Shown here: one piece after another, positions 338 through 46,087 of the stretch
How positions within the stretch are numbered: position 1 is the first letter of the stretch
How the letters are laid out: each line of letters starts with the position of its first letter
Assembly: GCA_964471745.1 (NCBI GenBank)
Contig: CAYYHI010000002.1
Span: 1-48,101 of the forward strand
DNA: 48,101 bases
Direction of reading: 5' to 3'
Origin: an uncultured bacterium
Lineage (GTDB): Bacteria > Electryoneota > AABM5-125-24 > Hatepunaeales > Hatepunaeaceae
Notes under the pieces: model-generated
Databases searched by the model: none
The model's input: only the letters and a program-made list of their open reading frames with translations
What the model was told of the DNA's origin: nothing
Translations under genes and position numbers: made by a program

Positions 338-3322
338 TTACTTCATCAGTACCAACTTCTGGCTGGCTGTCTCAGCACCGGTTTCAAGACGAAGTATATA
401 CACACCGGCAGACAGCGAGGAGGCATCGACGTTGTAACTGTAATGCCCCGCTGCCATCCGACCTTCTGTCAGTGTGGCGATCTCGCGACCGATAAGGTCA
501 TAAAGCGCCAACTTCACGTAGTCATTCCTGTCAAGCTCAAATCCGATGTTCGTTGTTGCATTGAAAGGATTGGGGTAAGCCGGATCAAGTGCGAATTGAT
601 AGGGTGTAACCGAATCCTCATCTTTAACTTCGGTCTGACCGACCTCTTCACCATCGGTTGGCGCTACGGCGTAATATCCCTGGTTTTCCGTGAACACACC
701 GCTCATCCACTCAAACTCGGTATGAGATACAAGCCCTTTTTCGCCTCCCTCTTCGCGGAGGAATAGACCGCGGCTATCTATTACGTCTTGTGTCAAACCG
801 TTGGTAGTGAACCAACTGCTGCCGGTGTTGTCCGTTATTGCCCAGTAGCCCTTGTCTAAAGCAGCAGCGTCTATTCCACCGATTTCAAAATTCTCGATGC
901 GAACGTAAACGCCTTCGAGCTCTTCAGCGCGCTCAGTCCAGACCAGTTCACCGAGATCGACCAACAGCGGCGCCGGCTTGCCCGGGCTGTCTATGACGCT
1001 GTAGTCTGTAACGTCGATGTAAGTAGCCCACTCCCAGTAATCACGATTATCCGGATCGCGCTGCATCACCATACCAGTAACCTCGATCAGGTCGCCCTCG
1101 TTCAGGTCTGCTTCGATGCCGCGTACACAGATGCCAGCCCAGTTTCCGCCGGGACCGTTCTGGATAACATAGGCGCCGAACTGTTGGTTGAACGTCGCGG
1201 GCGTGGTAAGAACACCACGGACTGTTACTTCGTAACCCATATACGGTGAAAAGTCAACTCCCCACAGTCGCGGAAAGCTTTGAACATCCTGAATGGTCAA
1301 TCCGCCTTCCTCGCGTACAACATAAACCCAGTAATAAACAGCGGACGGGGCATATCCGTCCATATCGGCTTCGTCGGTGGCAACGACGCGGTACCATACA
1401 CTTGTGCCCTCATCCTGCGCAGGAATAGTCGCAGTGTAAATATTACCTTCACCGTTCTCCATATCGATGGAGTGCTCTTCTTCCCCGTTGATGATGTATT
1501 CGAGGACAGCGTCTACTATAGCCGCTTCTCCACCCGGTTCGATGGCAGCTGTAACGAGAACGGGACCGTCGGGCGTCGGAACGCCCGGAGCGCGTACACC
1601 TTCGCTGATAATGGGTCGCATCCCAATATGGAAGGGTGGTCCATCCGCCCAGATTGAGTCACGCAGTATCCCATCCACAGGCACACGCTGGTAAATAAAG
1701 GGACAGAGTGTATTGGCTGCATTCGCATCATTCTGAATTGTTGTGCCGGCTTCTGTCTCCAATTCGTAGAAGATGTGCAGGAAATCATTAACCCTCTCGG
1801 CAACCGTGGTGTAGCATTCACACTCGGCTTCACCCGGCTCGGCGAGATGCGATCTGGTCTCGGCGACCATCGTCGGGTAGTACCAACTGGCGCCGTTGTC
1901 CTCCGAAACGGTAACGGCAACATCGCCGTGGCAGCGTCCATAGTCGCTAACGTAATCGTTATAATCGTCCGGCGGATAGTAGTTGTAGACACAGAAAAGA
2001 TCGCCGTCATCGTTATAGGCAAGCGATGGGTAGCAGACGTTGGACCTCCACGCGCCCGGTGTGGGTTGAGCCCTGATCGTATCGTCCACAATCACATACT
2101 GCCAGTACCAGCCGTCGGCGACCGGCGAGATGTCTTCCGTTGCCTCACTCCAGTGGAACAGATAGGAGGCATCAACAGTCAATCCCGGTCGGTAAGCGCC
2201 GCCGCCGCGCCTGACGGGTGGACTTTCATCCTCATCGGGATCCCACCATAGACCACGCGCTTCAAACACGATGTGGATGTTGTCCTCGTCGTCGAAGATC
2301 ACGTCATGGGTACAATATGGCAGCAGCGTATCGCCGTATACCATTTCACCGCCCCGGTGAAGATCGGGCATGACGCAGTCGGTGACGTTGATCGGATTGT
2401 CAAAGTTCCAGTTCTCGCCGTTCTCATCGGTGTAGGCAAGATAGAGGTCGTTGTTCATCTGGTAGGCGAGGAAACCGTCCCATTCAGGCGGCGCGGGAAT
2501 ATCAGTCCGCGGGAACATCCAGGTTATGGCGACCCGCTCGCTGACCCTTGAACGCGCAATGCGATAGGAGTTCAGATGGGTCTCGCCGACCACTACCGGA
2601 TTATCAACGTCGAAGACGATTTCGTCGAACTCGATGTATGCCGGCAGATAGGCAATTCTTCCACCGTCGTCTCCCAGATCGTTGCCGACAACATGGATTG
2701 TACCGCTTTCGGCTGACATTACACCCTGGGGCCAACGGACCAGATCATCGGGGAAAGTTGGAAAAACCGTAACCATGAAAGCTCCCCAACCAGGTCGGAA
2801 GTCGAGAGCTCCTGCCCAGACCATTTCATCGGGGTACGGACCGCCCATGACGTGGGTGAAAACAATCGCCCGCTGCGCTTCCTCTTCGGTCAACCAGAGG
2901 CATCCATATCCGCTGCGGTCACCCTCATCGACCTGTTGATCGCCTACCTCCAACCATTCTTCGTCTTCTGTCACGAAGTAGTTGAATTTCTGATGACGGG
3001 TTATATTGTCCACATCATAACCATCCATCCAGCTTACATGGACATTACCGTCCTGATCAACACCGATAAACTTGCCGATGGAGCCATTGCTCTGGTAGTC
3101 GTAGTACGTATCCCCCGCTTCGAATACATCGCCGATAATGTCGTCACGCCGTGGCGTCCATTGATGGTCGGCAAGGATGAACGGTGCATCCGGTAGGGGA
3201 TCATCGGGCATGACGATCTTGTCAGCCGGTTTGTCGGCAATCGGCGGTATCGCCATGTGAGTTGTGGCGAAACCTCCGGTGACAAGCATCAGTGAAATGC
3301 AGAGACCAAGTAAAAGTCTCAT
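338..3322 (-). CDS. Secreted BNR/Asp-box repeat protein, T9SS cargo (Por C-terminal sorting domain)
   Basis: 994-aa ORF. Signal-like N-terminus MRLLLGLCISLMLVTGGFA. Asp-box-like motifs SEDNGASW and TDENGENW. The C-terminus YPNPFNATTNIGFEL...GVYILRLETG...KLVLMK has the same CTD pattern as four other ORFs here. Confidence 0.75.
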   Translation of the reverse strand: MRLLLGLCISLMLVTGGFATTHMAIPPIADKPADKIVMPDDPLPDAPFILADHQWTPRRDDIIGDVFEAGDTYYDYQSNGSIGKFIGVDQDGNVHVSWMDGYDVDNITRHQKFNYFVTEDEEWLEVGDQQVDEGDRSGYGCLWLTEEEAQRAIVFTHVMGGPYPDEMVWAGALDFRPGWGAFMVTVFPTFPDDLVRWPQGVMSAESGTIHVVGNDLGDDGGRIAYLPAYIEFDEIVFDVDNPVVVGETHLNSYRIARSRVSERVAITWMFPRTDIPAPPEWDGFLAYQMNNDLYLAYTDENGENWNFDNPINVTDCVMPDLHRGGEMVYGDTLLPYCTHDVIFDDEDNIHIVFEARGLWWDPDEDESPPVRRGGGAYRPGLTVDASYLFHWSEATEDISPVADGWYWQYVIVDDTIRAQPTPGAWRSNVCYPSLAYNDDGDLFCVYNYYPPDDYNDYVSDYGRCHGDVAVTVSEDNGASWYYPTMVAETRSHLAEPGEAECECYTTVAERVNDFLHIFYELETEAGTTIQNDANAANTLCPFIYQRVPVDGILRDSIWADGPPFHIGMRPIISEGVRAPGVPTPDGPVLVTAAIEPGGEAAIVDAVLEYIINGEEEHSIDMENGEGNIYTATIPAQDEGTSVWYRVVATDEADMDGYAPSAVYYWVYVVREEGGLTIQDVQSFPRLWGVDFSPYMGYEVTVRGVLTTPATFNQQFGAYVIQNGPGGNWAGICVRGIEADLNEGDLIEVTGMVMQRDPDNRDYWEWATYIDVTDYSVIDSPGKPAPLLVDLGELVWTERAEELEGVYVRIENFEIGGIDAAALDKGYWAITDNTGSSWFTTNGLTQDVIDSRGLFLREEGGEKGLVSHTEFEWMSGVFTENQGYYAVAPTDGEEVGQTEVKDEDSVTPYQFALDPAYPNPFNATTNIGFELDRNDYVKLALYDLIGREIATLTEGRMAAGHYSYNVDASSLSAGVYILRLETGAETASQKLVLMK

Positions 3323-3373
3323 GAGAACCTCCTGTGTTGTAAATCTATGAAGTTTTGTTTTTTCTATTTATTA

Positions 3374-3590
3374 GGGGAGCATAGACACTCTCAGTGTGTC
3401 TGAGAATACAAAATTGTCCCGGGATTCATCATTCCAACGGAAGTTGGAATCCAGAGAAGTTGCTGATATTACATGCGTTACTGGATTCCATCTTTCGATG
3501 GAATGATGAGGTTCGATGCGTTTTTCACATTCTCAGACACACTGCTCTTGTCTGTGCAAGTACGGTTAGACAGGAGTGTCTAACCTCCCC
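3374..3590. repeat. Nested MITE-like repeats: a 60-nt palindromic element interrupted by a 153-nt TIR-bounded element (3392-3544)
   Basis: Outer halves 3374-3391 and 3545-3590 match the intact copy at 21449-21508. The inner element has perfect 16-bp TIRs CAGTGTGTCTGAGAAT/ATTCTCAGACACACTG and is flanked by duplicated CTCT. Confidence 0.85.
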
Positions 3591-3676
3591 TCTAACTGCT
3601 GTTAAGGTATCCTCCGCATCCCCTCCTGCTATTGCAAAGCCTGTCCTCGATGAAACGGGGGGGAAGTTAGAGGGGA

Positions 3677-6600
3677 TTACCGTAAAAGTACCAACTTCTT
3701 CTGTGCTGTCAAACCGGCAGCTTCCAGCCGGACGATGTAAAGACCGCTGGGAAGCAATCCCGCATTCAACATCAGGCTGTGACTGCCGCCACCAACCTCG
3801 CCGCTCTGCAGAACCCTCACCAGACGACCATTCACATCCAACAATTCAAGCCGCATCTCACCGGCGCCCGGCAGGTTATAGCCGATCCTCACGCTGGAGT
3901 TGAACGGATTTGGACTGGGATGTTCGAGCCCGAAAACAACCGGCTGCAAGTCAACATCATCCGTCAGATCGAGATAACCATCCGCCGGGATCGTTGTGAA
4001 CAGAATTGCACGCTCCGGTTCCAACTCCGCCGCTGCCGGATGATAGATATTGGCATAAGTAATTTCAAGCCCGCGCCTGTGCAGCCAGTCCTGGATGCCG
4101 ACGGTTGCAAAGTTGGTCTCAGTTCGGTCGACAACGACGACATCAAGGTACTGCATCAGGATTTCACCGTCACCCGTTTCCGTCCGGTGACCTTCCGCTG
4201 TCGGGTTGAATAGTATCAGCTCGAAGGTTTCCAGATGATCTTCAACGCTTGTTCTCGCATTGACCCGGCTCCATTCGATGATAAAACGATCTTCCTCCTC
4301 GTCATAGCGCGTGAAGATATCGAGGCTATCCCGCATGTCAGAACCAATGCTATCGCCGACAAGATCCTCCCAGAACGGCGCTATCATGGAATGCGGTCCC
4401 AAAGGTGACGGCATCCCCCAGTTGCGGAAGTTGTAGTACAAGTTGGATGCCTCAAAGCTGATCCAGCCGTTGGAGCAGACCGCAATTGAATCGTACTCCT
4501 CACCGTAAAAGATGAAGGTAAATGGTAGTTCATATAAATATGTTGTATCATCTATAAATCGTTGAAGAAGCGCACCCTCACCGCCATAATCCGGATCAAG
4601 CTCTATCCAGTCGAACTCCGGCGCCTGGGGATACCGATCGCTATCGTCACAGCTCTCGTATGCATAATAACCGTATCCGTCCGGTCCGATCGGGTCTTCG
4701 GGTCCGACGTCACCGATGATGATCTTGAACGGCATGGTATTAACACGGCGGTCGTTGCTGTCGGTTAGGTGGACGATGAGCTCGACTCGCCTGCCGTCCG
4801 CTGCTCTGTCCTCAGCCTCGATGCGGAACGGGTTTCCCGAGCAGTCAACGGTTTCACCTGCGCCGATATCGCCGAATTCAGCTTCATTGTCGACGATCGT
4901 GATCGAGTTGTCATAAGTTATTATCTCAGCCGTGAGTCCCGTTAAATCCATGTCGCCACCGTTCATTACTGTGACCACCAGATCAGCAGCTTCTCCCGGA
5001 TTGATGACACCGCCCTCGAATTCATAACTGACATATTTTACAACGCCGGTGCTGATCGGCAGGCGGAAGAGAGCGTGGTAACTGTTCTGCTGGTCATCTG
5101 TAATTTGCAGCAGAAAGGGAACATGATCCGCGGATGGAATCTCATGCGAAAGGATCACTCTGAATGGTCCATTGGCGGCAACAAACTCTCCCGTTGCTAT
5201 ATCGCCGAAGTCGGCGCTTGCTTGTACGATCTCAACCTCATCAATCGCGCTGGAAAGGGTTGCAATAACACCCCTGGAGTTGTTAATACCCGTGTTGCGC
5301 AGGGTTACCGTCAGATCAACCGGTGTGCCGGTGATCAGCCTGTCATCATCGCCGTTGGAAACGATAACACCGGCAAAGCCGATGTTTCTTTCGGCGGCAC
5401 TTACCGGTATTGTAGCAAGATAAGGAAAAGCCTGCTTGGCAATTACCGTAACCTCCAAATCACCTTCACTGTCCAGTTGAACGGGAACCAGGGCTAATCC
5501 GTCGGCGTCGGTCAGTACGCTGATCCCGGTCTCATCGGTCTTGCGCAGCGTAACCATCGCGCCGTAAACAGGATTGCCTGCCTGGTTTCGCACCGTAAAC
5601 GCAGTGTAACTATCACCGATATAGAGCTGTTCAGTGTGTTCGACTTCCAATGTGAAAGGTGCATCCAGGTAAACCGTCACTTCCGGGTCGCCGATAATGT
5701 TATAGATGTAGGTGTAAAACTCAACCTCCCTGCCACGTTCCCTCTTATGCGGATAGCCGTCCCAGAGCTCCATCTTGGCAGCAAGTGTCAGCGGTGCGAA
5801 ATTCCGAATGTTCCGATAAAGGAGGCTGAAGTAGAATCCACCGAGCAACGGGTTGTTGTACCTGGTTTTTGTGTAGAGGTCGGAGGGTCCGAAAAACACC
5901 AAACCGGCGCAGGGTGTTCTCCTTGTTCCCTGAAGAATTGAATATTCACCGAAGCACTGCATATGATCGTCATTATGGAAATCGCCGGTGTTGCAGACAA
6001 AGAAGGTGGAAATCGGCAGCAATGGGTCGTTGTATAGTTCCTCAAGGTTCTCCTTGTGGAACGTCGGGAAATGAGGACCATTAGCATCACCCCAGCCGCG
6101 ATAGGCGAGAATATTAATACGGCGGTTGATCGATTCGACAATCGGACCGGGATTAACGTTATCACCCGAACGCTCCCAGTAGAACTCTTCGACGTCATAC
6201 CCGCGCTCGCGCAGTCTCTCCGCGAGCCAGCGACAGGTTTCAACAGGACTGGATGTCAGTTCTCCTGAGTCGTCGTAATTACCGCCGAAAACTGTTGCCC
6301 GGTGATAGGCACCCATATCGAGATCGCCCAGGTTCTGCATATCCCTTTCGTGCCTGAGATACCTTGCCAGGGCTCGTTGAAGTTCGCCGGGATTGGGTGA
6401 ATCGCACGAAATCCGACCTATAAAAGCATCTATGAAGTAGTCGTCGCCTTCAAGCATAACATAGGGCTGATCCGTGGGATCAGTCTCGGCGCAATCGGGG
6501 TTTCTTATATAGAAAGTCGGAAGATGAATGCCGGGGGCGTCTACGTCTCCAACCAGCAGGACGTATTCAGGCGGTCGTTCCCAGTTGTCATAAGCGTCCT

Positions 6601-38542: not shown

Positions 38543-40533
<1,991 letters not shown>

Positions 40534-40534
<1 letters not shown>

Positions 40535-41448
40535 TGCAGGTTCCACGTAAAATAGACTTTGATGAGTTTATTTGCACCTGTACACCATTGTTGCGCATTC
40601 CTGAACTTGAGGTGGAAATGCGTCAACGTGTGCAGCGTTTGGTTGATGGTTTACTGGATTTTGAACCAAGTGGAAACAGGACAGACGACTTGGTTGAGTT
40701 CCTGCGACGCGATAAGGACTTTTTAGGTGTTCTGCTCGCCTTAACAAACTTGTCTCAAGAGAAGCTGTTACGAGTTATTACTGCAAAACGTTTCGCTGAT
40801 AAAGATTTTAAACCTGAGTGGGGCATAAAACGCGTTTATCGTAAGATATGTAAAGAGAAAGAGTTTGCAGTAGAGATTGCAAAAATGTTTCTTGAAGGGC
40901 GTCAGAACCCAATATTGGCTGAACAAGTCGCAGATTTCTACTTAGATCAATTGAGATTGCCAGAAAGTTGGTTTGACATTATCCGGGACGATAAACTCAT
41001 AGGAAATGTCATCCGCAAGAAACTAACAGGGGAATACAGCGACCAGAAAGGCAAGCATATAGAAAGAATGATTTGCGCACGTTTGGATAGCATGGGATTC
41101 TCTTATCGCAAAGGTCAGGTTCCATTACTTGGCAAAGAAGTCGACATCGCTATTCTGTCACTTGAAGACCCTTATGTGTTGATTATGGTGAGCTATATGG
41201 AAACTACATCCAGCGGTCAAACTACTCGCGCCAACGAGCAAAACAAGATTTTTCAAGATGTTATTGCACGTAACGTTCGCCATAATGAAAACCGTGCTCT
41301 GGTCAACATTGTAGACGGTGCGGGCTGGCTTGCCAGACGGTCTGATTTACGCAAGTTGCATAACGGTTGCCATTATTGCCTGAATTTTAAGAATCTTTAT
41401 TTACTGGAAGGGATCATTCGCTATCACGTACCGTACGGAATAAAATAA
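40534..41448 (+). CDS. Putative type II restriction endonuclease (function inferred from context only)
   Basis: A 304-305-aa ORF with no family recognised. Its ATG overlaps the gyrB TGA (TGATG) and its TAA overlaps the ATG of the DNA methyltransferase (TAATG). A VDIAI...SYMETT segment could be a PD-(D/E)xK-like core. AT-rich relative to gyrB. Confidence 0.45.
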
Positions 41449-42386
41449 TGAAAGTTGATTTGGTCAACAAAATAGTCCAAGGCGACTGCCTGAAAATCCT
41501 CGCCCAATTGGATGACAACAGCGTAGATTTATGTTTTGCTGACCCTCCGTTCAATCTGGAGAAGAAATACAATTCATATAAGGACCATAAATCAAATAGA
41601 GAATATAAGCGTTGGTGTGAGAAATGGCTGGTTGAACTTGTTCGCGTGACCAAGCCGACAGGCTCTATATTTGTCCACAACATACCTAAATGGTTGACCT
41701 ATTTTGCCGCAATTCTCAACGACATCGCCCATTTCAGACACTGGATATCTTGGGATGCAATGAGCAGTCCCATCGGTAAAACCCTGCTTCCGGCACATTA
41801 CGGTATCTTATTCTATACCAAGGTTTCGAAAGGATTTAAGTTTTACGAAATTCGCGCGCCGCATAAACGTTGTCGAGTGTGCAAGTCTTACGTCAAGGAT
41901 TATGGTGGTAAGAGCGATCAGCGTCATCCGTTTGGTTCCTTGGTTAGTGATGTTTGGACCGACTTGCATCGTATTCGTCACAACACTCGTCGCGATCCAC
42001 ACCCTTGCCAACTTCCTCTGCCTCTTTTAGAGCGTATTATCCTGATGAGCAGTGATGCAGGGGATATTGTATTGGATCCTTTCGTTGGCACCGGAACAAC
42101 AGCAATCGCTGCCAGGGCGCTGGGTCGCCGCTATATTGGTATTGATATCGACCCGCATTATGTGGACATTACGATCCAGAAGTTGTCCGCTGTGCAGCCA
42201 TCTATGTTTGAAGGTGTATATGTGTCAATGTATTTAGGGCAGATCGTAACCATCCGCGACGTGGACGCGAAGGTGTTATTTCCACCACAATTAACTTCCA
42301 TTGAAAAACGCCGTCGTAAGTATGTTATAACAAGGGATGCAATTCAGCTTAATGTTGATGTAACAAGAACAGAGCAGAAGGATTGA
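41448..42386 (+). CDS. DNA methyltransferase, N4/N6 beta-class (motif IV before motif I), probably N6-adenine
   Basis: IVQGDCL..L..L.DNSVDLCFADPPFN (motif IV DPPF) near the N-terminus, then HPCQLPLPLLERII and VLDPFVGTGTTAIAA (motif I) near the C-terminus. Confidence 0.9.
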   Translation: MKVDLVNKIVQGDCLKILAQLDDNSVDLCFADPPFNLEKKYNSYKDHKSNREYKRWCEKWLVELVRVTKPTGSIFVHNIPKWLTYFAAILNDIAHFRHWISWDAMSSPIGKTLLPAHYGILFYTKVSKGFKFYEIRAPHKRCRVCKSYVKDYGGKSDQRHPFGSLVSDVWTDLHRIRHNTRRDPHPCQLPLPLLERIILMSSDAGDIVLDPFVGTGTTAIAARALGRRYIGIDIDPHYVDITIQKLSAVQPSMFEGVYVSMYLGQIVTIRDVDAKVLFPPQLTSIEKRRRKYVITRDAIQLNVDVTRTEQKD

Positions 42387-42459
42387 ATTCACCATTACTC
42401 TATTACCCTGCAACCGCCACTCATAAATGACGGGAAATCAAAGGATAAAGGAGCAAATA

Positions 42460-43056
42460 ATGTCTCTGATGCTCGCAGACAGCCGTGACCATGCGCTGAC
42501 AGCACTGGTCATCAAAGAAGCGCATCAAGCATCAGCTCAAGGTGGGGGATTCGTTGGCAGGACTGCCGTCCAGAAGATAATGTACTTCCTCAAGGCTCTC
42601 GGTGTGCCGATGAATTACAAGTTCCGCTTGCATCACTATGGACCGTATTCTGATGATTTGCGGGACGATGTGGATTGTCTCCTGGCAGACGATGCTATAG
42701 AAGATACTTCCACAGATCAAGAGAGATATTCAAATTTTCAACCTTCAACAGAGTGTGAGAGTCTGCTTGACAGTTACCAGTCAAAGTTTGCTGAACACAA
42801 AGATGTGATAGCAAGTATTTCCCATTATCTTGCACAATTTCAACCGGATGAGTTGGAGCTCATAATGACTTTGGACTATCTCTACCGTGTTGAGAGGGCT
42901 AAGCAACCTAAGGGAGACATTAAAGAAACCGTCTTGGATCGATTTATGGATCTCAAGGGTAATAAACCTAGGAAGACCGTAACCTTGGATAAGGAGACGG
43001 TAAGTGATTGGTACGATAGGTACGACAAAATGGTCGAACTGGGACTATTTGAGTAG
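42460..43056 (+). CDS. Uncharacterised protein X1, paralog of 45438-45986 (possibly DUF4065/Panacea- or YwgA-like)
   Basis: The ORF track starts at 42427; ATG 42460 follows RBS AAGGAG. The shared core with X2 is GRTAVQKIMYFLKALGVPMNYKFRLHHYGPYSDDLRDD versus GETHLQKAVYFLKEVFRAPIDFEYILYKYGPFSFELRDE. Confidence 0.6.
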   Translation: MSLMLADSRDHALTALVIKEAHQASAQGGGFVGRTAVQKIMYFLKALGVPMNYKFRLHHYGPYSDDLRDDVDCLLADDAIEDTSTDQERYSNFQPSTECESLLDSYQSKFAEHKDVIASISHYLAQFQPDELELIMTLDYLYRVERAKQPKGDIKETVLDRFMDLKGNKPRKTVTLDKETVSDWYDRYDKMVELGLFE

Positions 43057-44019: not shown

Positions 44020-44057
44020 AAAAAGTTTTGTAAATAGTAAATATCTTTATTTAAAGC

Positions 44058-44086
44058 TTGACAAAGATACTGCACATTTGTATACT
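44058..44086 (+). promoter_or_regulatory. Near-consensus sigma-70 promoter of the HD-X2 operon
   Basis: TTGACA-N17-TATACT, 49 nt upstream of ATG 44135. Confidence 0.55.
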
Positions 44087-44134
44087 TATAGAAAGATATG
44101 GTTCTATGATGTATTTTTACATTGAGTAAACGTA

Positions 44135-45424
44135 ATGAAAAAGCTTTATCACGAAATACGCGACCCGATCCATATGTTTGTCAGGCTGAAGGATGATGAG
44201 AGGAAAGTTTTAGACTCCGAACCTATTCAGCGCTTACGTTATATCCATCAGCTTGGATTGACTTACTTACTATATCCCGGTGCAACACATAAACGATTTG
44301 AACATTCATTGGGTGTAATGGAACTCGCAAGTAGAGTATTTGATGTGGTTACTAACCCAGTAGAGAAAACGGATGAAATTAAAGATGTTTTACCAGAGGT
44401 TACAGATCGGGTTGCTTTAAGTTATTGGAGACAAGTAGTTCGAATGGCGGCTCTTTGTCATGATATTGGTCATTTGCCGTTTTCACATTCTGCTGAAGAA
44501 CAGCTTTTACCAGAAGGATGGGATCATGAGAGAATAACCTTCGATGTGATAAGTAAAGAGTTAGGATCAATCTGGGGGAAATTTATTCCACCTCTAAAAC
44601 CTGAATTGGTTGCGAAGATAGCAGTAGGGCCCAAGAAGGCTAAACACTTGGAATTTACGCTCTGGGAAACGATTCTATCGGAAATCATTACAGGTGATGC
44701 TTTTGGTGTTGACAGAATAGACTACCTGCTTCGCGATTCTCTCCATGTCGGTGTTGCGTATGGTAAATTTGACCATTATAGGCTTATTGACACGCTTAAG
44801 ATTCTTATCTCACGCAGCGATAATGAACCTACTATAGGTATAGAAAGTGGTGGATTACATGGAGCGGAAGCGTTACTATTGGCAAGATACTTCATGTTTA
44901 TGCAGGTGTATTATCATCGTATTCGTTGCATTTATGACAAGCACTTGGAAGATTTCCTTAAGGCATGGTTACCAAAAGGCAAATTCCCAACAGGTTTTAA
45001 GAAGTTAAAGAAATATACCGATAACTTCATCCTCAACGCTTTAACGGATCATAAGTATTCGAAAGAACCGATTCTTAACGAATTAGCAGACCGTATTGTT
45101 AATAGACGTCATTTTAAAATGGTTTATGAACTTAATCCGGTGGATTTTGAGAAGAATAATTACGCCAGTCAACTTATTAACAAAGCTTTATGTTCAGAAT
45201 TTGATAAAGGGATGGTTAGATACGTCAGAATACCAGGTAAAGGGGGAGATGTATCATTTCCTGTTGAGGAGAGTGATGGTCAAGTAGTTACATCCTTGAA
45301 AAAATCTCAAGTCTTAGGTAAATTACCCGTTACAAAAGTTGAATTCGTCTATGTTCATCCTGATATTGAGGACAAGGCGAAGAGTTGGCTGAGTGTCAAC
45401 CGTGAAGATATTCTGAAAGCCTGA
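44135..45424 (+). CDS. HD-domain phosphohydrolase, SAMHD1/EF1143/YwfO-type (putative dNTP triphosphohydrolase)
   Basis: IRDPIHMFV....E...LDS.PIQRLRYIHQLG, RFEHSLGV (His), LCHDIGHLPFSH (HD) and DRIDYLLRDS (Asp), which is the COG1078-like architecture. 429 aa. Confidence 0.85.
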   Translation: MKKLYHEIRDPIHMFVRLKDDERKVLDSEPIQRLRYIHQLGLTYLLYPGATHKRFEHSLGVMELASRVFDVVTNPVEKTDEIKDVLPEVTDRVALSYWRQVVRMAALCHDIGHLPFSHSAEEQLLPEGWDHERITFDVISKELGSIWGKFIPPLKPELVAKIAVGPKKAKHLEFTLWETILSEIITGDAFGVDRIDYLLRDSLHVGVAYGKFDHYRLIDTLKILISRSDNEPTIGIESGGLHGAEALLLARYFMFMQVYYHRIRCIYDKHLEDFLKAWLPKGKFPTGFKKLKKYTDNFILNALTDHKYSKEPILNELADRIVNRRHFKMVYELNPVDFEKNNYASQLINKALCSEFDKGMVRYVRIPGKGGDVSFPVEESDGQVVTSLKKSQVLGKLPVTKVEFVYVHPDIEDKAKSWLSVNREDILKA

Positions 45425-45437
45425 AAGGAGGAGGACA

Positions 45438-45986
45438 GTGGAGCGTAATCAAAGGTATGCTCTAATCTTAACACAGGCAAGAGAGATGCTTAATAAAGGT
45501 AGCTGGTGTGGGGAAACACATCTGCAAAAGGCGGTTTACTTCCTAAAAGAAGTATTTCGTGCGCCAATAGATTTTGAGTATATACTTTATAAATACGGTC
45601 CTTTTTCTTTTGAACTGAGGGATGAACTTACAGAGATGAGAGCCTGCAGTTTATTTGACCTGATGGTTAAGGAAGCAGGTTATGGTCCAAGTTATGTCCC
45701 AACACCAAAGGGAGGAGAGTTCCTTGAAAAGCATCAAGGAACGATCAGCGATAACCTTCAAAGTATCGATGAGATTAGTGAAATACTTAGTGATAAGGGA
45801 GTGAAGGAGCTCGAAGGAATGGCAACAGCATTATGGATTATTAGAAATGAAAAAGCTGTTGGTCAGGATCTGGATGCAATAACCAAGAAAGTAACAAAAT
45901 ACAAACCTCAAATCAATGCTGATGATGCAAGGAAATCCGCAGAATTAACCTTGCAGATAATATCGGACGCGAATAAGTCTATGTAA
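45438..45986 (+). CDS. Uncharacterised protein X2, co-transcribed partner of the HD phosphohydrolase; paralog of X1
   Basis: A GTG start 13 nt after the HD stop, preceded by AAAGGAGGAGGA. The core is LQKAVYFLKEV....P..F.Y.LYKYGPFSFELRDEL. No catalytic motif recognised. Confidence 0.7.
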   Translation: MERNQRYALILTQAREMLNKGSWCGETHLQKAVYFLKEVFRAPIDFEYILYKYGPFSFELRDELTEMRACSLFDLMVKEAGYGPSYVPTPKGGEFLEKHQGTISDNLQSIDEISEILSDKGVKELEGMATALWIIRNEKAVGQDLDAITKKVTKYKPQINADDARKSAELTLQIISDANKSM

Positions 45987-46087
45987 GGAAAAAGATTAAG
46001 TAGCATATTTTACTATTGTCCCTATAAACCTATAAGCTATTCGCGGATCCGCGTTTAAATCGATCTTTTTCTTCAATTAGCCGACTC

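Follow-up and report, generated by a model that had tools for sequence, protein, structure and literature searches.

Why are a gene for an HD-domain phosphohydrolase and a gene for a small protein joined in one AT-rich unit between mazG and a HisJ-family PHP gene of an uncultured Electryoneota bacterium, and what could their two products do to each other? We analysed this unit, HD-X2 (HD being the phosphohydrolase gene and X2 its small partner; Table 1), in a stretch of 48,101 nucleotides of contig CAYYHI010000002.1 (assembly GCA_964471745.1), hereafter the window, together with homologous loci from other genomes and metagenomes, which carry L numbers below. Judged from its distribution, HD-X2 likely has a role in defence or as a toxin-antitoxin (TA) system. 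The more specific reading, a nucleotide-depletion defence or TA-like module in which X2 restrains HD, appears to us evenly balanced between right and wrong. An earlier note on the same DNA had described the promoter, the HD gene with its motifs, the 13-nt spacer and the 182-residue X2, and all are present where it placed them. The AT richness that it reported is seen as a G+C content of 0.37–0.41 across the unit versus 0.51–0.57 in the flanks, and the restriction-modification (R-M) system that it put at about 2 kb lies 1.7 kb upstream of the cassette. In the relative L172, the gap between mazG and the PHP gene is 74 nt with no gene between them; the word "insert" is therefore literally true for the HD-X2 unit.

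The catalytic and substrate residues of the HD protein place it in the SAMHD1/EF1143 type, as had been proposed. It carries the motifs RFEHSLGV, LCHDIGHLPFSH and DRIDYLLRD, matches Pfam HD with 34.9 bits (cut-off 22) and is likewise above the cut-off of HD_assoc_2. A profile of 16 family members searched against the PDB matched Aquifex 2HEK (3e-84), Enterococcus EF1143 (4.5e-48) and human SAMHD1 (~1e-39). The metal ligands H167, H206, D207 and D311 of SAMHD1 correspond to H57, H109, D110 and D193, which are invariant in the 16 members, and the catalytic His/Glu dyad H233/E234 corresponds to H131/E132. Further counterparts are R54/H57 for R164/H167, H109/D110/H113/H118 for H206/D207/H210/H215, D193/R194/Y197/D201 for D311/K312/Y315/D319, R251 for R366, Y259/H261 for Y374/H376 and Q39/L40 for Q149/L150; in all, every triphosphate- and deoxyribose-contacting residue of SAMHD1, including Q149/L150, has a counterpart in HD. 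The residues of the first allosteric site, D137/Q142/R145, are matched by D27/Q32/R35. Except for D27 and H113, which are outside both the invariant and the at least 90% lists, these counterparts are invariant across the 16 family members. From these residues we infer that HD hydrolyses deoxynucleoside triphosphates (dNTPs). Membership in the anti-phage dGTPase (Dgt) clade was rejected, as HD scores 17.1 bits against a cut-off of 400 (NCBIfam NF041026) and 18 against 383 (NF003701); over the Dgt/dGTPase-type models the scores are 17–32 bits against cut-offs of 152–500, and the PADLOC dGTPase match (E 2.2e-8) spans residues 20–124 only. The hypervariable patch within HD (Table 1) could be a recombination tract or an arms-race or co-varying surface, and the variable patch in X2 likewise a recombination tract or a co-varying surface.

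X2 is, as far as profiles and a predicted structure can tell, a stand-alone homologue of the C-terminal (Panacea-like) domain of DarG. It matches PADLOC DarG with 6.3e-11 and NCBIfam antitoxin_DarG (NF048014) with 1.5e-10, the latter over model positions 168–325 only and with 40.8 bits against a cut-off of 250. The AlphaFold2 model (predicted local distance difference test, pLDDT, 95.7) is a single all-helical/winged-helix domain with no nucleotidyltransferase (NTase) motif, and its top Foldseek match is chains B/D of 7YK3, the M. tuberculosis DarTG complex, over the full length (template modelling (TM) score 0.73–0.74, probability 1.0, 188–190 aligned columns). A search of the PDB with the single X2 sequence returned no match and the X2 family profile ranks 7YK3_B first with an E-value of only 0.12; the case for homology to DarG is therefore made by the fold together with the NCBIfam and PADLOC profiles. 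According to Deep et al. 2023, as cited in PMC13621843, the C-terminal domain of DarG binds and inhibits DarT. X2 as DarG proper was rejected because it has no macrodomain and no adjacent DarT, and a DarT gene was found at none of the inspected X2 loci. Pfam has no family for X2 or for 81 homologues, and neither X2 nor its paralogue YwgA-like-1 matches SocA_Panacea. The expectation of a DUF4065 match failed in one part and held in another: X2 does not reach the gathering threshold of SocA_Panacea (PF13274), and the 5 of 81 homologues that match do so at noise level (best E 0.02), while the match to the DarG C-terminal domain stands, and a 2026 paper (PMC13621843) treats DUF4065/Panacea proteins as homologous to that domain. 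The relation of X2 to Panacea is indirect, by way of the DarG C-terminal domain.

Homologues of X2 are labelled "uncharacterized protein YwgA" by JGI, and the parallel with ywfO-ywgA of B. subtilis, which the earlier note drew, holds as a family name. The X2 gene starts with GTG at 45438; an ATG at the same codon in the related contig L003 and homologues that align from residue 1 support the 182-residue start, as opposed to the public gene call P0001, whose 166 residues begin at an internal ATG 16 codons downstream.

We then asked how faithfully the two genes travel together. In an HD-centred sample, an HD-alignment scan of metagenome contigs that yielded 80 loci of 45–63% identity, 73 of them with enough downstream sequence, an intact X2 lies directly downstream of HD in 73/73. 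An X2-centred sample was obtained by scanning one genome per species with an X2 alignment; 389 of 185,579 species genomes matched, and of the best 80, which were examined, 77 were evaluable. These best 80 loci span Acidobacteriota, Chloroflexota, Planctomycetota, Bacillota and Desulfobacterota as well as the archaea Methanothrix, Methanosarcinales and ANME, and the close family has 2,530 representatives among 1.84 billion proteins. Immediately upstream of X2 on the same strand, HD is intact in 57 of the 77, full-length and split over two frames in 10, truncated in 7 (counting L052, which carries a masked N run) and absent in 3. HD in any of these forms thus precedes X2 in 74/77 and is full-length in 67/77. 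A gap of at most 100 nt between the two genes is kept across species, 13 nt here and mostly −4 or −8 nt elsewhere, and no natural HD-X2 fusion, which would have served as Rosetta-stone evidence, occurs in 160 loci. The pairwise distances of HD and X2 correlate with r = 0.77 (135 pairs), a value reached by 0 of 999 Mantel permutations. Judged by gene order and distances, these data show that HD and X2 are passed on together as one unit in bacteria and archaea alike, in line with the conservation and co-variation proposed for the pair.

HD is lost or truncated at 10 of the 77 X2 loci, and this asymmetry between HD loss and X2 loss gives a Fisher p of 0.0015 in a test that draws its two samples from different collections. 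Decay of HD with X2 kept is the pattern expected if HD were harmful when unrestrained. The same asymmetry bears on a reading in which X2 is an infection sensor or activator of HD and not its inhibitor. An activator would explain the strict pairing and the co-variation just as well, and SAMHD1-type enzymes need allosteric activation, the first allosteric-site residues being kept in HD; yet loss of either gene should then be equally tolerated, whereas only HD is seen lost, and the homologous DarG and Panacea domains are neutralisers. We consider an activating X2 quite improbable, and that X2 restrains HD, as opposed to sensing infection, is inferred.

Four related contigs with the common backbone dciA-gyrB, mazG and PHP were compared. 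In the window, the mazG-PHP slot holds HD429 and X2, and the slot between gyrB and YwgA-like-1 holds the endonuclease and methylase of the R-M pair. In L003, whose gyrB is 98% identical in nucleotides, the mazG-PHP slot holds an HD-X2 allele 86% identical in protein and the other slot holds HD464, with window positions 40533–42411 replaced by L003 positions 2958–4396. In L171 (gyrB 91%), an unrelated pair of HD451 and a 188-residue protein occupies the mazG-PHP slot, and an AIPR protein (PADLOC AbiU, 1e-35) occupies the gyrB slot. In L172 (gyrB 76%), the mazG-PHP slot is the empty one described above, and HD456 with a 189-residue protein lies behind gyrB. On these comparisons, the HD-X2 unit is shown to behave as an accessory cassette that alternates with known defence genes.

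Synonymous divergence (dS) from L003 is 0.08 in gyrB and 0.18 in mazG versus 0.53 in HD, 0.41 in X2 and 0.91 in YwgA-like-1, and the excess is patchy, being found in HD at 44511–44792, in X2 at 45793–45892 and in the C-terminal half of YwgA-like-1, which is indicative of recombination as its source. Positive selection as the cause of the divergence was rejected, because the ratio of nonsynonymous to synonymous rates (dN/dS) is 0.14–0.17 and the divergence is concentrated in patches. With dN/dS against L003 of 0.14–0.24 (0.14 in HD), HD, X2 and YwgA-like-1 are, on this sequence evidence, functional genes with a recombination-driven history and not decaying DNA.

The neighbourhoods of HD-X2 at large were surveyed by clustering five open reading frames (ORFs) on each side of the pair in 162 loci and identifying cluster representatives by PADLOC and Pfam. 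Of the neighbour families met most often, HmaB (DUF1156 methylase) lies beside the pair at 16 loci, HmaA (SNF2 helicase) at 15, HmaC (DUF499 ATPase) at 7, type I R-M subunits at 7, an NsnB-like ABC ATPase with a 206-residue partner at 7 and BrxL at 2. At 11 loci, HmaA, HD-X2 and HmaB/C follow one another on a single strand, and the pair is therefore embedded within the Hma system. According to Payne et al. (2024, preprint 10.1101/2024.01.29.577857), most Hma-embedded genes are defence systems, and seven new systems were discovered through their embedding. Guilt by embedding asks for a place inside Hma in more than five systems and for common occurrence outside it; here there are 11 embedded loci, and Hma is a neighbour at 19/162 loci, the remainder lying outside Hma. 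The Hma-embedded loci are scattered over the HD tree and in both domains of life. A ubiquitous core-genome pair with no link to defence, which would have spoken against a defence role, is thus not what we found; the pair is cassette-like and lies repeatedly beside or inside defence systems. In this respect the association with defence genes that the earlier note expected holds, and the in-silico checks that it proposed came out in favour of its reading. A recognised defence cluster is present at only 20 of 79 well-flanked loci, a figure that stands without a matched background rate.

That low frequency is one of several points that weigh against the nucleotide-depletion or TA-like reading. Many loci, e.g., in Chloroflexota, have metabolic neighbours only, no PADLOC model matches the HD-X2 pair strongly, and the toxin-first gene order is the rarer one for type II systems. 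Besides the difference in collections behind the asymmetry test, sequencing or assembly errors of metagenome-assembled genomes may account for some of the 10 HD genes counted as split. Among 50,697 cultured-phage records X2 had no match, and among 72,556 plasmids a single weak partial one; HD-X2 is therefore not a typical plasmid or known-phage gene unit. HD is also unusually conserved for a defence gene (51–57% identity between bacterial and archaeal members, dN/dS 0.14), and the B. subtilis namesake YwfO has a homologue that the minimal genome Syn3.0 keeps, ywfO being listed among the genes that co-evolve with PolC.

Some of these points suit the main rival explanation, which is that HD-X2 is a regulated housekeeping dNTPase: HD would trim or balance the dNTP pool, for replication fidelity or in stationary phase, with X2 as a regulatory subunit and with no phage conflict involved. 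The YwfO record, the strong purifying selection and cross-domain conservation of HD, the position of the cassettes flanking mazG near dnaA-dnaN-gyrB in the host lineage and the metabolic neighbours at Chloroflexota loci would all agree with such a role. A housekeeping gene, however, would not be expected to come and go or to undergo allele replacement among close relatives, in a slot that alternates with R-M and AbiU-like genes, nor to be embedded in Hma systems or to decay repeatedly with its partner kept; the close family is moreover rare, by the genome and protein counts given above, and the cassette is AT-rich relative to its host. For the HD-X2 family considered here, the presence/absence differences, the swaps with R-M and Abi genes and the place inside Hma speak against housekeeping, although Firmicutes may differ, and we hold the housekeeping explanation to be unlikely.

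A purely selfish addiction module, which would stabilise itself and neighbouring DNA with no anti-phage benefit, is favoured by the asymmetric decay in which the toxin is lost and the antitoxin kept, the antitoxin-domain homology of X2, the mobility of the cassette and its listing as a predicted PanAT family (see below). We regard it as improbable, since HD-X2 is virtually absent from plasmids, the repeated place inside Hma and beside R-M and Abi genes fits defence better, and many TA systems of the antitoxin superfamily of X2, DarTG included, defend against phage.

How the unit is expressed bears on what X2 could do. The sigma-70-type promoter is the best among 18 promoter-like sites in the 40–47 kb region of the window (11.2 ± 4.0 expected) and lies 49 nt from the HD start; both of its hexamers are unchanged in L003, where the intergenic region is 97.4% identical. 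By this layout, a consensus promoter is shown to drive HD and then X2. The ribosome-binding site is weak for HD and strong for X2, and in most homologous loci the genes share 4 or 8 nt instead of having a spacer between them, which on sequence grounds shows X2 to be translationally coupled to HD in most homologues. Three AAAGATA copies stand around the promoter (44042–48 on the minus strand, 44063–69 and 44092–98), i.e., 3 of the 10 matches in the whole window fall inside 57 nt, and together with the inverted repeat that brackets the promoter (Table 1) they form a candidate operator for autoregulation. This opens the further possibility that X2 is a winged-helix transcription factor which represses the operon with no contact to the HD protein. 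The winged-helix-like core of the model, the MarR/PadR regulators among its lower Foldseek matches and the inverted and direct AAAGATA repeats around the promoter are in keeping with it. Those regulator matches, the next in rank, are weak (TM at most 0.37) against the full-length match to the C-terminal domain of DarG, a repressor would need neither such strict translational coupling to HD nor co-variation with it in hosts and behind promoters that differ widely, and orphan X2 genes occur in phage-like contigs away from any AAAGATA operator context. A repressor-only X2 is, to our mind, very improbable.

Putting restraint of HD by X2 back at the centre, we propose the following course of events. 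HD-X2 would be a horizontally mobile two-gene operon whose first gene encodes a metal-dependent dNTP triphosphohydrolase belonging to the SAMHD1/EF1143 clade. X2 would bind the HD enzyme and hold it inactive by direct protein-protein inhibition, a step suggested by homology and modelled on the DarG C-terminal domain against DarT and on PanA against PanT, and its winged-helix part may in addition act on the AAAGATA repeats to repress the promoter. Speculatively, phage infection could remove or titrate X2, upon which the freed HD might drain the dNTPs and phage DNA replication would stop; equally speculatively, phage-borne orphan copies of X2 could counteract the system. Two phage-like IMG/VR contigs carry an X2 homologue without HD, one at L086 8001–8558 on a contig with a terminase and the other at L089 4425–5006 with an RNA ligase, a dNMP phosphatase and a protease-like ATPase. 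By analogy these orphans may be antitoxin mimics serving counter-defence, and they recall the phage orphan antitoxins that defeat DarTG (PMC11825919).

A bolder generalisation, which we put forward tentatively and with more doubt than belief, is that HD-YwgA protects bacteria and archaea widely against phages and would be the first defence by nucleotide depletion whose enzyme comes from the SAMHD1 clade proper. In this view, a DarG C-terminal-domain/Panacea-type protein would restrain the enzyme, the system is often nested in Hma, and the orphan YwgA copies of phages would counter it as antitoxin mimics. As a corollary, the YwgA-like gene that persists next to exchanged cargo behind gyrB may work with several partners or be what is left of an immunity function.

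Table 1. Features in and around the HD-X2 cassette (window positions)
Feature	Position	Strand	Description
Type II R-M pair	40531–42386	+	305-aa putative endonuclease and 312-aa N6/N4 methylase
YwgA-like-1	42460–43056	+	X2 paralogue, 198 aa from conserved ATG; ORF from 42427 is 209 aa; follows R-M pair
AT-rich cassette	44020–46087	+	2.07 kb, inserted between mazG and PHP/hisJ-like gene
Candidate operator	44041–44099		14-nt inverted repeat ATATCTTTATTTAA / TTATAGAAAGATAT (44041–54 / 44086–99) bracketing −35 and −10
Promoter	44058–44086	+	Sigma-70-type, TTGACA-17-TATACT; 11/12 positions match
HD gene	44135–45424	+	429 aa, SAMHD1/EF1143-type (COG1078) HD phosphohydrolase, predicted dNTP triphosphohydrolase; Pfam HD and HD_assoc_2
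Hypervariable patch in HD	44511–44792	+	Residues ~126–220; 53–76% nt identity to L003 versus ~87–95% in rest of gene
HD-X2 spacer	45425–45437	+	13 nt with strong Shine-Dalgarno (AAGGAGGAGGACA) for X2, read from sequence
X2 gene	45438–45986	+	182 aa, YwgA family, predicted homologue of toxin-binding C-terminal domain of antitoxin DarG (profiles and fold)
Variable patch in X2	45793–45892		Residues ~119–152; 78% nt identity to L003 versus 87–95% in rest of gene

The remainder of the window is an origin region with dnaA, dnaN, dciA and gyrB, together with mazG and cargo genes of the type IX secretion system (T9SS); a search of the window for a larger defence island found none apart from the R-M pair, the other neighbours being dnaA, dnaN, dciA, gyrB, mazG and T9SS cargo. 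MazG, upstream of the cassette (NCBIfam PRK09562, 300 bits against a cut-off of 208), is found in all syntenic relatives and is native to the lineage, as the earlier note had supposed; the flank on the other side is a HisJ-family PHP protein (TIGR01856, 144 against 90). In the R-M pair, the methylase match is strong (N6_N4_Mtase, 5e-50), and the endonuclease stays putative, its DpnII/BanI-like match being weak and under the cut-off. Its GTG start at 40531 overlaps the end of gyrB at 40534 by four bases, so the R-M cassette abuts gyrB, whereas L003 has an 80-nt spacer after gyrB in place of the overlapping stop and start. The slot from gyrB to YwgA-like-1 is a hotspot for cargo (window 40531–43056, L003 2958–5032, L171 3046–5588, L172 2879–5417). 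YwgA-like-1 is retained in all four contigs, with a C-terminal half of ~60% nucleotide identity to L003, and its orthologues come after HD464 in L003, after the AbiU-like gene in L171 and after HD456 with its 189-residue companion in L172; its matches to DarG (PADLOC 1.7e-16, NCBIfam 1.4e-14) are stronger than those of X2. The stretch from X2 to the PHP gene contains a perfect palindrome of 12 nt, CGCGGATCCGCG (46042–46053), with a T-rich run after it; the terminator scan did not call it, and it could mark the edge of the cassette or terminate transcription weakly. Several large ORFs at 338–21375 end in a T9SS C-terminal sorting domain (Por_Secre_tail), one of them with a C25 peptidase domain, and these sorting domains point to an FCB-group host.

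At other loci, too, the unit keeps particular company. In Methanothrix, the NsnB-like ABC ATPase (PADLOC NsnB 1e-57, AAA_21/AAA_15), with a partner of 175–206 residues that has no family match, repeatedly adjoins HD-X2 (L029 11–2162, L053 7974–10540, L049, L138, L014, L027 and L039); in L029 and L053 the ATPase pair adjoins X2 alone, and several of the Methanothrix loci are not independent of each other. At L010 (9306–10552), inside an Hma locus, HD is reduced to a 12-residue N-terminal remnant, with the upstream ORF ending in "...MAKHFHEIRDPIAAEHW...", and an intact X2 is followed by a PRTase-CE gene, HmaB and HmaC. At L174 (3308–6676), HD451 and a 189-residue protein (HD with YwgA) lie beside a 403-residue DCD_N/DCD/DCD_C gene, which is dCTP-deaminase-like and has no PADLOC match, on a stretch that also carries primase-like genes (Toprim_3, AAA_25, DUF7146). 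The two would be nucleotide-pool enzymes sharing a probable mobile element.

Should HD prove to be a dNTPase that X2 restrains, this would link the nearest prokaryotic kin of human SAMHD1 with antiviral defence, under a new control principle in which a protein inhibitor of the DarG/Panacea superfamily acts rather than nucleotides alone. The unstudied YwgA family (~2,500 representative clusters) would gain a function, the partner-swapping Panacea/DarG antitoxin network would gain an effector class, the defence-finder databases would gain an Hma-embedded candidate that they now miss, and phage counter-defence by orphan YwgA would be predicted. The pair is small and easy to clone.

Among known systems, a close precedent is the predicted PanAT family T34 in Dataset S1 of Kurata et al. 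2022 PNAS (PMC8832971), a COG1078 "YdhJ" HD "toxin" upstream of a Panacea protein in five Firmicutes genomes, marked "notest". Like HD-X2, T34 has a COG1078 HD gene immediately upstream of a small Panacea-type gene in toxin-antitoxin order, with overlaps of −4, −17 and 0 nt, and by architecture the arrangement is the same in the window and in the 160 loci examined. T34 is, however, defined by the Pfam DUF4065 gathering threshold, which the X2 family does not reach. The HD-Panacea architecture is hence not entirely new, and the description of the module as undescribed was too strong; T34 stands in a supplementary table and is not discussed in the main text of that paper. What is new here is that the YwgA family, invisible to Pfam, is linked to the C-terminal domain of DarG, that HD and X2 are almost always paired over bacteria and archaea and decay asymmetrically, that cassettes swap with R-M and AbiU at one hotspot, that the pair occurs embedded in Hma, and that phage-like contigs bear X2 as an orphan.

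With the Hma-embedded candidates (Payne et al. 2024), HD-X2 shares the pattern of embedding described above; neither the HEC nor the PDC models of PADLOC-DB v2.0.0 include it, and the text and supplements of that preprint contain no HD, DUF4065 or dNTP term. To ywfO-ywgA of B. subtilis the likeness is by name, the X2 homologues being called YwgA and YwfO being described as an HD-type NTP hydrolase; that pair looks core and persistent in Firmicutes, unlike the cassette behaviour of HD-X2, and a literature search on YwgA, YwfO, COG1078, DarG-like with HD, and dNTPase with antitoxin found no functional study of the pair. With DarTG (7YK3), X2 shares the fold and profile of the toxin-blocking domain of DarG; it differs in having no macrodomain and no DarT, and its partner is an HD phosphohydrolase, so that target and chemistry differ.

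The anti-phage dGTPase, reportedly the subject of Tal et al. in 2022, and Clover CloA-CloB follow a common logic with HD-X2, namely an HD dNTPase effector whose toxicity needs restraint, and their enzymes are of the Dgt/dGTPase clade, unlike HD. In Clover, the effector is restrained by its partner gene through a nucleotide signal (PMC12265719), CloB being a nucleotidyltransferase that makes an inhibitory nucleotide, whereas X2 is a DarG-like protein by profile and model. Membership of HD-X2 in Clover was rejected, as X2 has the fold of the DarG C-terminal domain and no Pol-beta-type NTase motif. With SAMHD1, EF1143 and Aquifex Aq_1910 (2HEK), finally, HD shares the fold, the metal ligands, the catalytic His/Glu and the residues of the substrate site and of allosteric site 1, and in contrast to them it has no SAM domain, a distinct C-terminal region (HD_assoc_2) and a small protein partner of its own.

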